Source: a candidate division WOR-3 bacterium (lineage in GTDB: Bacteria > Hydrothermota > Hydrothermia > B15-G9 > WFZT01). Taken from it: DNA of 17,556 bases. Positions 12,584-17,556 of this stretch are shown one piece after another; positions within the stretch are counted from its first letter, which is position 1; each line of letters starts with the position of its first letter. The position numbers and the translations under genes are program-made. The DNA is taken from contig JALUEE010000022.1 of the NCBI GenBank assembly GCA_027053075.1, forward strand, positions 1-17,556, in the 5' to 3' direction. The notes beneath the pieces were generated by a model that saw nothing but the letters and a program-made list of their open reading frames with translations, did not search any database and was not told the origin of the DNA.

Positions 12584-12652
12584 AGAAAACCAATCACCTT
12601 TCCCACAATTTAACCCCTTGGTGGCACATCGAATCTCATATTTTGCCTGAAT

Positions 12653-12840
12653 ATGTAACCCATCACCTCAATCCTCTCCCCGCAAGAATTTATGCGGGGG
12701 AGAGGAAGATTTTTGGGATGTGAGTAAAATCCTTTTTCAAACCTGTTCCACTATGCCCCTGCATCTCCAAAATTTTCACACACTGCGAGCCAAAATCCCC
12801 TCCTTCCTTTGGAAGGAGGGGTTAGGGGAGAATGGTGAAA
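12653..12840. repeat. ~185-bp composite repeat (REP doublet), copy 2
   Basis: Homologous to 322-505. Palindromes at 12673-12705 and 12797-12821, with their asymmetric tails in opposite orientation. Confidence 0.85.
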
Positions 12841-12923
12841 GATGACACATTTAAAGTTCTGCTACATGTTCAAACATCTGATAGCTATGAAGGACTTAAA
12901 ATTTAAAAAATTTTAATATGTTT

Positions 12924-12967
12924 CCCCTCACCTAACCTCTCCCCGCAAGAATTTATGCGGGGAGAGG
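12924..12967. repeat. REP-like palindrome
   Basis: CCCCTCACCTAA-CCTCTCCCCGCA-AGAATTTA-TGCGGGGAGAGG, near-identical to 328-372 and 12660-12705. Confidence 0.88.
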
Positions 12968-13126
12968 GAGTGTTTTAATTTGCTATCTCAAAGTTTTAAA
13001 CAAAAAGCTGTGCACTTGGGCAAAGTGAATTGTCACATAATTATCTTTGAAACATGTGTAACCACAACATCAAAAATATTTCCCTACACAAGAGAAGCTT
13101 GTGTTATGAAATGGCTACAAACTTTT

Positions 13127-13170
13127 CCCTCCCCCGCTTGAGAAGCAAGCGGGGGAGGGTGAGGGAGGGG
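13127..13170. repeat. REP-like palindrome (reverse orientation)
   Basis: CCCTCCCCCGCTTG-AGAAG-CAAGCGGGGGAGGG, 14-bp stem, with TGAGGGAGGGG tail. May also act as a terminator for rlmB. Confidence 0.8.
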
Positions 13171-13201
13171 TCGTTCCGCTTGAAAATTCAAAATAAAATC
13201 T

Positions 13202-13927
13202 TCACCCCATATCCCTCACTGCAAATGCCAGGGCAATGGCAAAGGCTGAGGCTGCATTTAATGAGCCTGTTTTCCCCTTCATTGGGATACTAACTACATA
13301 ATCACTTTCTTTCAAAGTAAGCCGGCTCACACCCTTATCCTCTCCACCTATCACGATGGCAAGAGGGAATGGAAATTTGAAATTGAAGATATTTTCTCCA
13401 CCTATCTCAACGGATACAACAAAACCACCTTCTTTTTTAAAGTTTCTCAAAAAGCTTGCAATATTAGGAACTACAGCAATGGGGATGTGAAATATCGCTC
13501 CTGCTGAAGCCTTGACCACTGTTTCTGATAGGGGGGCTTGGCGTCGTGATGGAATCACGACGCCAAGCCCCCCTAAAACCTCCGTTGTCCTTATTATGTT
13601 CCCCAAATTCTGCGGGTCCTCTACATGATCAACCACCGCTACAATCCCTCGATTTTTTACAACCCTCTCAATAATCTCTGAAGCTGAAACCGTCTCTATT
13701 GGGCTTATCCTCGCAACTATACCCTGGTGATTTACATTCCCCACCATACTTTTGAGCTTTTCCCTCGATACAAGGGACACAGGAATCCTGGATTCTTTGA
13801 TCCTGTCGTAAATCTTCTGGTCAATTCTCACCCCCTTTTGAATATAAATTTTTGTGATACGCTCAGGATTGGTCTGGAGTAGCTCATAAACGGGATTCCG
13901 GCCAAAAATGAGGTTATCCGTTTTCAT
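13202..13927 (-). CDS. rlmB: 23S rRNA Gm2251 2'-O-methyltransferase (TrmH/SpoU family)
   Basis: LIFGRNPVYELL, NHQGIVA, DHVEDPQNLGNIIRT, KASAGA, IGGEDKGV, SIPMKG...SLNAA. Start placed at ATG 13927 (MKTDN). Confidence 0.92.
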   Translation of the reverse strand: MKTDNLIFGRNPVYELLQTNPERITKIYIQKGVRIDQKIYDRIKESRIPVSLVSREKLKSMVGNVNHQGIVARISPIETVSASEIIERVVKNRGIVAVVDHVEDPQNLGNIIRTTEVLGGLGVVIPSRRQAPLSETVVKASAGAIFHIPIAVVPNIASFLRNFKKEGGFVVSVEIGGENIFNFKFPFPLAIVIGGEDKGVSRLTLKESDYVVSIPMKGKTGSLNAASAFAIALAFAVRDMG

Positions 13928-15032
13928 GCCCACCTTCTTCATAGAGCTCCACAAGTTTCTCCACTATCCTGCGGGACGCGTTGCCATCTAATTTGTAAAA
14001 AAGCTCGCGTTTATATTCTTCGGCCTTCTCTTTCATCTCGTCCGTGGGATTCAGGGCACGCTCGATGGCCGCGGGAAGCTCCTCGGGCCTCGAGATATGC
14101 ACAAAGGCACCTTCCAAAAACTCCCGGTTGTCCTCACTCAAAATAGGAGTTCCGTCATGGTGCTTGAGCTTTTCATAAGGAAGGTTGTAGATGATACCAA
14201 ACTTTCCAATGGCCAGAAATTCAAACATGGTGCTCGAGGCCTCCGTGATCATGGTATCCGCAACGTAAATAAACGGCAGGATATTGTGCTCTTCTTTGGG
14301 AATCAAAACCGCGTGGGGATACTTCTTAAGCCGTTTTTCAAAGATTCTGTGCTGGGAATGGGGTGCATATTTTCCCCTCCACGAGTAGGGATGAAGTTTG
14401 ATGATAAGATTGTAATCCCTGGTGTATTCGAAGATGGCATCCTTCAGGGCGTAGATACTCGTTGGCTTGTAAGTAGGGGCATAAAGGACCGTTTTCTTCT
14501 CTGGATCAAGTCCCCATTTTCTCATAATTTCTTCCCGATTTAATTTGCCCTGAAAAATAGGGTCAAGCTTGGGATATCCCACCACGTATACCTCATTCTT
14601 CAAAAGGGCACCTTCCTCAATGATTTTACGCTTCCGGTAGGGCCCCTCAACGAATATGATATACTTTGTGTCTGGCTGGCTTTTCAGATTTCTGTAAAGA
14701 ATGGTCTTTATGCCTGTGCCGTGGTTTACAAAGGCAAGGATTGTTTTGCCATAGAGGTGTGCGTCTCTGATGGTATCCCCTGTAATAACGATGTCAAAAC
14801 CACTCTTGGTTTCAGCAATTTTCAAACCTTCGCGTCTCAACTGTTCGTGAATTTTGTCTTTTAGGCTTCTTGTAAAAATGGAAAATTTACGCTCTTTTTC
14901 GTCCTCACAGGAGAAATAGATATCAAAACGAGGGTCATCTTTCATAACCTCATAAATGGGGTCGAGTGAGGCTCTGTGGTAGAGAAAGCTCAGTCTGAAG
15001 AGGACTTTAATCTTACGGGAAGAGTTCTCCAT
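13914..15032 (-). CDS. CDP-glycerol glycerophosphotransferase family protein (TagB/TagF-like, GT-B fold)
   Basis: NHGTGIK, VGYPKLD, KTVLYAPTY, LIIKLHP, ADTMITEASS.MFEF, DGNASRRIV motifs. Confidence 0.82.
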   Translation of the reverse strand: MENSSRKIKVLFRLSFLYHRASLDPIYEVMKDDPRFDIYFSCEDEKERKFSIFTRSLKDKIHEQLRREGLKIAETKSGFDIVITGDTIRDAHLYGKTILAFVNHGTGIKTILYRNLKSQPDTKYIIFVEGPYRKRKIIEEGALLKNEVYVVGYPKLDPIFQGKLNREEIMRKWGLDPEKKTVLYAPTYKPTSIYALKDAIFEYTRDYNLIIKLHPYSWRGKYAPHSQHRIFEKRLKKYPHAVLIPKEEHNILPFIYVADTMITEASSTMFEFLAIGKFGIIYNLPYEKLKHHDGTPILSEDNREFLEGAFVHISRPEELPAAIERALNPTDEMKEKAEEYKRELFYKLDGNASRRIVEKLVELYEEGGHENG

Positions 15033-16011
15033 TGGGTGTCTCTTCTTCCTCCGGGAGTCCGAGGTAAACGTATCTTTTCAGATTCTGCATAAATTCAGAC
15101 CAGGGGGAATCGGGCTCTCTGCGTCTGTTTCTCGCATCAATGAACATCCATATTTTGGAATCCATGTTGTCTGCAAAGTGTAGAATCTGGGCTTCAAGGG
15201 TCATTGGTCGAACAGGTGAGCCCCATTCGAGCTCTCCGTGGTGGGAAATAACCAGATGGAGTAGCTGTAATTTGAGGTCTTCCGGGAATCCACCCCTGAA
15301 GTTCTTCATTTCCCGGATTTTCCGCATGATCATTTCGTAGCCTATCACCAGATGTCCAAGAAGTCGTCCAACATCTGTCCGGTCTATGCTCGGAAAATAG
15401 GAATATTCTTCGGTTTTGCCAATGTCATGTAAGAGCGCTCCGGTGACGAGCAGGTCAAAATTTACCTCTTTGTAACGGGAGGCAATGCTTATACAGAGTT
15501 CGGTTACGTTTAAAGTGTGCTCTAAAAGGCCACCGATATAAGCGTGATGGTGTGATTTGGCACCGGGGGCCATTTTGAATTTTTTCAGGAATTCAGGATC
15601 ACCGAAGAAACGCTTGAGAAGCTCTTTCATATGGGGGTTTTTGACCCTTTCGATTATTCTGTGGAGTTTTAATACCATTAGCTCGATATCATGCGGGGTG
15701 GTTGGGATAAAGTCGGTAACATCGTAGTCTTCAAGTGGTGTGACTTCAGCGATTTTTATGGTTATCTCCTCACGGTATTGGTCAACTGTGCCGCGAATTT
15801 TTATTACCTCGCCAGCCTTAATGTGAATGCGGTGCTTTTCAATGTCGTCAAAGACTCTTGCGGGAACTGAGCCGGTTGCATCAGAAAGGACCACATCGAG
15901 GAAGTCTCCACCGTCCCGCTTTTTCTTTGTTTTTATACTTGAAACGAGGAATGCATCCTCAATTTCTTCGTTGATATGGTCTCTTAAGTCCTTCACAAAA
16001 ACCTGCTTCAT
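15013..16011 (-). CDS. yhaM: OB-fold + HD-domain 3'-5' exoribonuclease (YhaM/Cbf1-like)
   Basis: OB fold (LSDATGSVPARVF), HHHAYIGGLLEHTL, LLHDIGK, GHL, SHHG.LEWGSP, HFADNMDS. Confidence 0.9.
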   Translation of the reverse strand: MKQVFVKDLRDHINEEIEDAFLVSSIKTKKKRDGGDFLDVVLSDATGSVPARVFDDIEKHRIHIKAGEVIKIRGTVDQYREEITIKIAEVTPLEDYDVTDFIPTTPHDIELMVLKLHRIIERVKNPHMKELLKRFFGDPEFLKKFKMAPGAKSHHHAYIGGLLEHTLNVTELCISIASRYKEVNFDLLVTGALLHDIGKTEEYSYFPSIDRTDVGRLLGHLVIGYEMIMRKIREMKNFRGGFPEDLKLQLLHLVISHHGELEWGSPVRPMTLEAQILHFADNMDSKIWMFIDARNRRREPDSPWSEFMQNLKRYVYLGLPEEEETPNGELFP

Positions 16012-16020
16012 AAGGTTAAC

Positions 16021-16049
16021 ATAATACTTTACCGCTTTGAATTTTGCAA
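16021..16049 (-). promoter_or_regulatory. Sigma70 promoter of the yhaM operon
   Basis: TTGCAA (16049-16044), 17-bp spacer, TATTAT (16026-16021). ATG is 9 nt downstream. Confidence 0.65.
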
Positions 16050-16115
16050 TTGATTTGGGTGAGATTTTATTGAGTAGTCAACATCTTGAATTTTTTGTAG
16101 AATTTAAGAGGAAGG

Positions 16116-16133
16116 CCCTCTCCCTCAATCCCT
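16116..16133 (+). repeat. Half REP-like element (interrupted target of the IS110)
   Basis: CCCTCTCCCTCAATCCCT resembles the REP leader (cf. CACCTCAATCCT at 12664-12675), but the palindrome that follows in other copies is missing. Confidence 0.6.
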
Positions 16134-16195
16134 TCTTCTATAATGTTTGTTGTTATTTATGATGGTTATCACTAAAAATATAGGGAAAACACTTC

Positions 16196-16375
16196 GGGAG
16201 GAGATGGTATGAGTGGGTGGAGACCGGCCTTGGTCCTGGGGCATGACCCCGAGGGGGAGATTGGTCCCTCCACCTGGGGTATAAGCCTGGATTGTTATTC
16301 GTGTAAAAAATCACTCCATTCAGAAGGTTAGGCTATACCCCATTCGGTGGAGGCTCCCACTCTCCATCTCCTCCC
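16196..16375 (+). ncRNA. Putative IS110 bridge RNA
   Basis: Closing stems 16196-16207/16364-16375 and 16211-16217/16356-16362 enclose two arms (16222-16266, 16267-16353), each with a large internal loop. Loop sequences match the junction and REP DNA. Confidence 0.72.
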
Positions 16376-16399
16376 AATAAAAAAAACAGGAGGTGCATT

Positions 16400-17556
16400 A
16401 TGGATACTTTATACGTTGGTATAGACGTAAGCTCAAAAGAACTATTCGCCTCCTTCTTCGATGATAATTCAAACCCCGTCATATCCTCCGCTAAATACCC
16501 TAATACCCCTGATGGCTGGCATGATTTCTCCCAACTCATATCCTCACTCTCCAAAAACTTCAAAATCGTCTGCGGCCTCGAATCCACCGGCGACTTCCAT
16601 ATCGGTATCCTTCATACCCTCCAAGCCATGGATAACATTGAAGTCCATCAACTCAACCCTGCCTCCGTCCGTTACTTTGCTAAAGCACTCAACGTCAGTG
16701 CCAAAACCGACCGTATCGATGCTCAAATTATAGCCCGCTACCTGGCCACTATCAAACCTCAGGGAGACTATCACGTCCCACTTTTCCTCCAACGTCTGCG
16801 TCATCTCGTTCGCACAAGACGTACCTTCACAGAGAATATGGCCTCTTTAAAGAATCAATTGTACCACATACTGAGAATTTATTTCCCTGGATACAGGATT
16901 CTTGTGAAGAGCGGGTTGCCTATCAGTTTTCTACACATACTCCAGAGATTTCCATCACCACATTTAATACTGGGAGCTGGAGAAGAGGAATTAATGAAGA
17001 TAAGGGTTGGGAGGCAGAAAATAAGGAGGAGCATAGTCAGGAAGGTAATAGATGTAGCGAGGAGTGCACCGATACAGGAATTAAGAGAGGCGGAGATGCT
17101 GATAATAAAGACAATAGTGAGGCAGATATTGGAGATCGATGGAGTGATAAAGGAGATAGACAGGGAAGTGAAGGAGATAGTTGAGGAATACTATTCGGAG
17201 TGCAAGATAACGAGCATACCGGGGATAGGCTGGGTGACAGCGGGAGTGATAATAGCGGAGGCAGGGGACATAAAGCGGAGGTTCAGGAGCAAGAAGAAAT
17301 TTGTGGGGTATTGTGGGTTGTATCCTACGGTGTGGGAGAGTGGTGATATGCGAAGGAGGGGGAAGATGACGAACAAGGGGAACAGGATGTTGAAGATGGC
17401 ATTTTTGCTAGCGGGTGTGAGTGCGAGGCGGACGAATCCGCAGATAAGGGCGTATTATGAGAGGTTATTGAGGCGTGGTAAGAGCAAGAGGGCAGCGGGA
17501 GGGGCGGTAGCGAGGAAATTAGCGGAGATAGTGTATGCGATAGCGGTTAGCGGAGA
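16400..17556 (+). CDS. IS110-family DEDD recombinase/transposase (3'-partial)
   Basis: Manual translation is open to the window end (385 codons): MDTLYVGIDVSSK...CGLESTG...LNP...KTDRIDAQIIA...SIPGIGWVTAGVIIAEAGD...YCGLYP..WESG...KGNRMLK...AVARKL. SD AGGAGG at 16388-16393. Confidence 0.96.
   Translation, partial: MDTLYVGIDVSSKELFASFFDDNSNPVISSAKYPNTPDGWHDFSQLISSLSKNFKIVCGLESTGDFHIGILHTLQAMDNIEVHQLNPASVRYFAKALNVSAKTDRIDAQIIARYLATIKPQGDYHVPLFLQRLRHLVRTRRTFTENMASLKNQLYHILRIYFPGYRILVKSGLPISFLHILQRFPSPHLILGAGEEELMKIRVGRQKIRRSIVRKVIDVARSAPIQELREAEMLIIKTIVRQILEIDGVIKEIDREVKEIVEEYYSECKITSIPGIGWVTAGVIIAEAGDIKRRFRSKKKFVGYCGLYPTVWESGDMRRRGKMTNKGNRMLKMAFLLAGVSARRTNPQIRAYYERLLRRGKSKRAAGGAVARKLAEIVYAIAVSG

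Follow-up and report, generated by a model that had tools for sequence, protein, structure and literature searches.

IS621 of E. coli carries a recombinase with a DEDD domain and a catalytic serine, a CT core and, upstream of the gene, a two-loop bridge RNA in which the left guide precedes the right one (PMC11208160; PMC11208158; PDB 8wt6). Both guides include the core (PMC11208160), and the two bases located 3' of the right guide act as handshake bases (PMC11208158). A sigma-70 promoter at the junction, palindromic repeats as targets and a G:T wobble that occurs naturally in the left guide (G53:T; PMC11208158) are further traits of IS621 which, like the preceding ones, have an observed or predicted counterpart in the element described here. 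The differences concern the right guide, which is of 4 nt in IS621 whereas matches of up to 9 nt are found in nature here; the target, since in the REPs quoted in PMC11208160 the left target is the 3' arm whereas here the core and the right target form the 5' arm of a hairpin; the left guide, often out of register here; the presence here of an 11-bp subterminal inverted repeat; and the size of the protein (431 against 328 aa).

The second comparable system is ISPpu10 of Pseudomonas putida, an IS110 element found on many REP copies, with a lax distal left guide, a stringent right guide and tolerance of wobbles, and for which the hairpin was likewise proposed as a second determinant (10.64898/2026.03.19.712850). 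In ISPpu10, the left target is part of a stem-loop on the 5' side, whereas the hairpin is on the right side in our case, and several guide variants coexist in one host. As reported, IS621 and ISPpu10 are both strict next to the core (PMC11208160; 10.64898/2026.03.19.712850). The IS1111 group shares the subterminal inverted repeat (11-13 bp; PMC11187229), but membership of that group was rejected: here the RNA is upstream and its bottom-strand guide comes first, as in the IS110 type, whereas in IS1111 the RNA is downstream and the top-strand guide comes first. Moreover, the left end bears the short extension and the right end the long one, the reverse of IS1111 (PMC11187229).

The element, its ends and its insertion site

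The window, i.e. the whole stretch of 17,556 nt that was analysed, is an entire contig (C22) of the source genome, G000. The features of the element and of its left junction are the following.

16110..16131, + strand: left half of the interrupted hairpin repeat, family R2; the same as in the empty site of a relative (genome G004, locus L066), the family being shared with empty copies, e.g. at C26:16162
16125-16131, + strand: left target (LT), within the left half of the R2 repeat
16132..16133, + strand: CT core dinucleotide (crossover point); the empty site continues CT-CCCCCTC, and the 12 right ends of G000 all terminate in CT
16134..16136, + strand: extra TCT triplet, which repeats the left end's first three bases and is missing from the copies on C14, C47 and C66
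16137..16150, + strand: left end, with a -10 box TATAAT (16139-16144) and, at 16140-16150, a subterminal inverted repeat of 11 bp whose complement is found, together with TTGACA, on right ends
16400..17556, + strand: IS110 DEDD recombinase gene, truncated where the contig stops; the complete copy on C14 encodes 431 aa

A domain search found both PF01548 and PF02371 in the product of 16400..17556, which thus combines a DEDD RuvC-like domain with a C-terminal Tnp domain bearing the catalytic serine. Residues D9, E61, D104, D107 and S314-G315 are invariant across 18 recombinase sequences, and D9, E61, D104, D107 and S314 are the counterparts of the IS621 catalytic set (PMC11208158). The sole PDB matches are IS621 and ISCro4. 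On this sequence evidence, we classify the element as an IS621-like bridge recombinase of the IS110 group.

Fourteen left ends and 12 right ends of the element are present in G000, a complete copy being of about 1.74 kb. Five left ends, that of the window included, begin CT-TCT (type A) and nine begin CT-CCT (type B). Close copies are confined to G000 and G004 among six genomes of the genus, and only one of 272 phylum genomes, namely the source genome itself, passed 1e-60 in the recombinase search; a single-protein scan of genome contigs and a profile scan of viral contigs gave no matches. The copies on C4, C30, C23 and C89 of G000 are mosaics, in which B-type right ends adjoin 3' parts of the transposase with 97-99% identity to type A; the N-termini of the transposase vary among the B copies. 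Another observation concerns an IS with a DDE (rve) transposase, which appears to be IS3-like. An 18-nt exact match links the IS110 left end (16139-16156) to the antisense of its first codons, in the copies on C26, C32, C37, C44, C50, C71 and C76, and it also interrupts IS110 copies at L027, L032 and C50.

The insertion point is intergenic and lies upstream of the nearest gene start, at a distance of about 120 bp. The preliminary description had placed the IS inside a broken repeat, and empty orthologous sites confirm it: in G004 and in the independent run X2 the site reads CCTCAATCC-CT-CCCCCTC. The G004 sequence (L066) is identical to the window up to 16133 and then runs into CCCCCTCGC and the hairpin; two contigs of run X2, which comes from a separate study, show the same CCCCCTCGC continuation. 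The empty site keeps one CT, which fixes the core at 16132-16133; the element has a core at both ends (the right ends being seen on other copies). The identity of the repeat was amended. The strings quoted earlier do stand at 16123-16132, 12666-12675 and 16253-16260, as does TCTCCCC at 342, 12675 and 12938, but the repeats of the 12666 type (ATCCT-CTCCCC), which had been cited as intact representatives of the interrupted one, form a distinct, sister family: the interrupted repeat belongs to the family ending ATCC-CT-CCCCC. Consequently, the half absent after the insertion is CCCCCTC...GGGGGAGGG and not the predicted TCTCCCC...GGGGAGAGG. None of the 12 right ends of G000 reads CT-CCCCCTCG, as would be expected of the right junction of the window's copy. 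The gene downstream of the G004 empty site is located on C40 in G000, behind another element, and the ancestral site of G000 may have differed from the empty site of G004.

Extra bases were found at 5 of 20 left junctions (+3 in the window, C50, C56 and G004:C80, with L022 listed too; +1, a single T, in C98) and at none of 17 right junctions. An identical contig from run X1, possibly the source sample itself, spans the extra TCT. An assembly error is unlikely, given the recurrence of the extra bases in other copies and their presence in the X1 contig, with the above proviso as to its origin. The +3 junction provides two equal registers for the donor guide and could be inherited. In normal copies, the perfect TTGACA and TATAAT carried by the right and the left end would be 18 nt apart if joined; the distance is 21 nt for the window's copy. 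By analogy with IS621 and ISPpu10, a TTGACA-18-TATAAT promoter would form on the circle junction, and the +3 junction would likely break it.

The predicted bridge RNA, its right guide and the hairpin targets

The region upstream of the recombinase gene is predicted to encode a bridge RNA with two internal loops, organized as follows.

16196..16375, + strand: predicted bridge RNA (fold and covariation), with an outer stem pairing 16196-16207 with 16364-16375
16226..16237, + strand: left target guide loop, 12 nt; the most variable columns among relatives, with an invariant last U aligned with the core T
16238..16250, + strand: inner stem-loop of the target-binding loop; 4 pairs, 2 of them with compensatory changes
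16251..16259, + strand: right target guide GAGGGGGAG, complementary to CT-CCCCCTC; 9/9 to the empty site
16260..16261, + strand: putative handshake bases AT of the target loop, complementary to donor positions 7 and 6; the A is invariant (12/12), and the role is assigned by analogy with IS621 (PMC11208158)
16276..16341, + strand: donor-binding loop, with left donor guide 16292-16299, right donor guide 16322-16326 and handshake GT 16327-16328

The fold of 16120-16400 has a z-score of -4.0, and no relevant Rfam family was found in 15900-16600. The stems covary over 12 related sequences, from the own lineage and from relatives at 38-53% identity: 97.7% of 264 cells are paired and 12 of 22 pairs show compensatory changes, in the same alignment as that from which the structure was derived. 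None of 500 shuffles reached the observed pairing, and slid controls were 26-51% paired. The frame of the target loop is constant: the left guide has 12 nt and an invariant final U, and is followed by a stem of 4 bp, a right guide of 9 nt whose last bases are AG, and an invariant A; the core-C position of the left guide, for its part, is not C in 5 of the 12 sequences. With these covarying stems, and with guides that covary with their targets, the first arm is a target-binding loop, as had been proposed. The opposite guide strand had been set at 16253-16260. A right guide is indeed present there, but the layout of guides and handshake bases in IS621, together with the invariance of A16260 in 12 of 12 sequences, gives 16251-16259 as its limits and leaves A16260, the handshake position, outside the target guide. 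As a side observation, 16268-16275 can pair either with 16216-16222, closing the target loop, or with 16347-16354, lengthening the outer stem; this alternative might constitute a conformational switch.

The loops match both target and donor. On the donor side, the donor loop covaries with the left ends (AGAAG with CT-TCT, AGGAG with CT-CCT), and the left donor guide tracks the right-end sequence in the six elements out of six that have both ends. On the target side, the right guide pairs at least 7/9 with each of the four A-type right junctions of G000, all of which begin CT-CCCCC; the B-type guide reads CT-TCC and the eight B-type junctions all start with CT-TCC. The full 9-mer, which the window's empty site matches, is carried by only 2 of the 295 empty CT-CCCCC arms of G000.

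The targets are hairpins. All right ends enter the 5' arm of an inverted repeat (12 of 12 in G000 and 4 of 4 in G004), although the folds are weak for the short B-type hairpins, so that the mapping of other copies and the comparison of empty with filled sites, both suggested at the outset, place these copies in related repeats. Four search patterns counted about 80, 121, 46 and 50 hairpins in G000 (about 300 repeats). These are abundant, short, intergenic palindromes, as REPs are, and to this extent the REP-type target announced earlier stands. The name REP is nevertheless used by analogy only: the Y1 (RAYT) transposase domain PF01797 was found in none of the five genomes searched (82-96% complete), while the control matched in 6 of 14. 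Two empty repeats of the window are filled in the relative:

12674..12704, - strand: sister hairpin repeat R1, empty here; filled in G004 from the opposite arm by the same IS family (right end L062 maps to window 12704)
13129..13157, - strand: empty repeat of R2, the family of the interrupted repeat; an IS left end is present in G004 (the L032 flank maps to window 13154-14045)

In addition, positions 300-830 and 12600-13200 of the window are composite intergenic modules in which three or four hairpin families follow each other in a fixed order, with no Y1 transposase detected in the genus genomes searched.

The register of the left guide

When the left guide is aligned with the window site through the core, the nine positions comprise three Watson-Crick pairs, three wobbles and three true mismatches (score 3.5/8), so that it does not pair contiguously through the core. 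Slipped by one base (+1), it forms pairs and wobbles throughout (6.5/8), which is modestly above chance (p about 0.01, from shuffled flanks with the best of five offsets). The left alignment of the preliminary description, in which every difference was a wobble, is this slipped one: the match is real but, the core being CT 16132-16133, it is shifted by one base. Since the right half of the site is matched exactly and the left half only when slipped, the guides of this IS110 group likely tolerate variable spacing, as judged from sequence matches.

The same guide scores 7/8 at offset 0 in C14 and 6.5/8 at +1 in C22 and C98. Over 28 sites, the best offset was -1 for eight, 0 for eight, +1 for seven, +2 for three and +3 for two; these offsets were picked after the fact, and eight B-type sites belong to one repeat family and are not independent. 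The 28-site test left out C16, C66 and L032 (guide absent from the contig), L075, L077 and L078 (unusable flank), L071, L072, L080, L082 and L085 (no left end), and L083, L086 and L087 (different loop frame). One Armatimonadota guide scores 7.5/8 both at +3 and at +1, as against 2/8 when held in register (p 0.001-0.002). G000 contains no perfect 11-mer target of the window's guide. The left-side signal of this guide is modest: sites scoring at least 6.5 make up 3 of its 6 insertions, against 34 of the 295 available arms.

We favour the following reading, with a probability of roughly 0.65: an IS110-group IS with a two-loop bridge RNA inserted at CT 16132-16133 of a hairpin repeat, directed mainly by its 9-base right guide, while its left guide paired one base out of register. 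It is built on features read from the DNA, namely the recombinase with its catalytic set, the element ends, the core and the empty site, the covariation within the loops and that of guides with targets and donors. On the model of IS621, the element would circularise and express its bridge RNA from the junction promoter, and recombination, with handshake pairing and strand exchange, would take place at a CT whose right side pairs with the long right guide. The left guide would add specificity, its duplex floating by a few bases relative to the core (+1 here, -1 to +3 clade-wide). This tolerance was likely inherited from relatives whose insertion sites lie between a Shine-Dalgarno (SD) sequence and a start codon. 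Wobble pairs would help without choosing the site. The hairpin has the right target as its 5' arm and may contribute by keeping hold of the displaced strand. Copy-out and direct-transfer routes have been described for another IS110 element (10.1101/2025.10.25.684509).

It could be argued that the left guide played no part, that site choice depended on nothing but the 9-bp right guide, the core and the hairpin, and that the slipped left match is a by-product of C/T-rich repeats. The window site has the longest possible right match, IS621 is reported to need only one matched arm in vitro, the right target included (10.64898/2026.08.31.748434), and two of the six sites with the same guide (L026 and L018) fit the left guide poorly in every register. 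Against this stands the covariation of left guides with left flanks, both between variants A, B and C and in distant relatives. Furthermore, when 12 guides are compared, the own guide comes first at 14 of the 28 sites, another guide being equally good at the remaining 14, and the six same-guide sites all rank above the median available arm (ranks 0.07-0.39). We therefore regard insertion on a half match as unlikely.

Less probable still is that the resident guide never read this flank, either because a different bridge RNA acted in trans or because the guide was later overwritten by recombination among copies. Such exchanges would be in keeping with the mosaic structure of copies having B-type right ends on an A-like transposase 3' part, with a D-guide copy lying in a repeat that best fits the A guide, with a B-type left end in an A-type repeat, and with the additional guide variants that appear in the runs. 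But among the guides observed in the genomes and loci, none pairs in register with TCAATCC. Of 12 guides, the resident one gives the best fit to the window flank, and the +1 offset is shared by three A-guide copies.

The preliminary description had proposed instead that a deliberately U/G-rich guide reads the CCTCAATCCT-CTCCCC family in register by means of wobbles, thereby covering its YYRRY variability. There are indeed 25 empty arms, 20 of them of the cited family (CTCAATC), that are wholly Watson-Crick or wobble in register, and wobbles account for 9 of the 16 differences located at G/U positions of the guide (p = 0.05 for an expectation of 1/3, with the best register chosen and related sites). 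Also, two of the four G004 right junctions begin CT-CTCCCC and would need a G:T wobble if the right guide is the same as that of the window; for both insertions, however, entry is from the opposite arm. The repeat interrupted in the window is of another family, 9 of the 18 differences at the six same-guide insertions are true mismatches, and none of these six insertions lies in the 25 fully compatible arms. Likewise, 44 of 200 sister-family arms score at least 6.5 in register, yet they are used by none of the six and by none of the four A-type right junctions of G000. Given this avoidance of well-fitting sister arms, wobble as a design principle of the guide is weakly supported, and we consider the in-register wobble reading very improbable.

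No description of an offset left guide was found in the accessible main texts on IS110 bridge recombinases; the guide-target tables of PMC11208160 may cover the clade. Bridge recombinases are under development as programmable editors, for which a fixed 7-2-5 register is assumed. If the preferred reading, insertion with a floating left guide, is correct, a clade in which additional bases are tolerated between the left target and the core would represent a class of off-targets missed by mismatch counting, and the floating register would explain target consensuses with variable spacers; otherwise the element is an ordinary new REP-type member of IS110. The guide variants, with hundreds of graded natural targets and matched empty and filled sites, constitute a ready test set.

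Related elements and retargeting

In distant relatives (L069-L087, L103 and L105), the insertion falls between an SD sequence and an ATG, on the opposite strand, AGGAG being restored by their left end. The RNA frame or the ends are shared by relatives at 32-48% protein identity, in which spacers of 4-10 nt separate AGGAG from ATG. The right guide of the relatives reads AGGAG in antisense, and several of their left guides start with the antisense of ATG. Of 10 distant left flanks, 8 contain, at 4-10 nt from the core, an ATG that starts a frame of 115-434 codons or one extending as far as the contig end, and a frame-opening ATG at the same distance is present in 3 of 3 outgroup sites. As the spacing from SD to ATG varies, such targets would account for the offset of the left guide throughout the clade.

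SD targeting is not new in itself. The target of IS900 lies between the ribosome-binding site and the start codon. In a related vein, the hed frame lacks its own ribosome-binding site and start codon (PMC8141618). Unlike these IS900-type elements, the lineage of the window targets intergenic hairpin repeats. In a midpoint-rooted tree of 17 proteins, the window's clade (support 99/97; targets known for two of its five rows) adjoins the SD-targeting elements, so that, under this root, hairpin targeting is likely derived: a vent lineage would have re-aimed a floating guide from SD sites to hairpin repeats. Four guide variants occur in two genomes, two of them on a near-identical scaffold in G000 and two more in G004. 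We tentatively propose, well short of a firm conclusion, that the floating left guide of the clade, with the right guide fixing the crossover, arose at SD-ATG sites; that in the vent lineage, retargeted to hairpins, at least four variants divide the repeat families, entering them by the 5' arm in mirror image to IS621 and ISPpu10; and that a self-blocked RNA such as the one described below may be a regulator retained by the host.

Two minor observations can be added. Runs X2, X3 and X5, from other vent samples, contain additional left-guide variants on the B scaffold, in loose ends that precede 16237. The other observation is a transposase-free, bridge-RNA-like locus in G000 (C33:137137-137300, L041/L042), divergent from a gene of 278 aa. 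No element ends were found nearby, and the RNA was not seen beside the same neighbouring gene in G001, G002 and G005. Isolated copies of a small RNA are known for ISPpu9 (PMC12288879). The C33 RNA has a B-type donor loop and an SD-like right guide followed by its own inverted repeat, and the orthologous locus of G004 (C180, L030/L043) is 96% identical.
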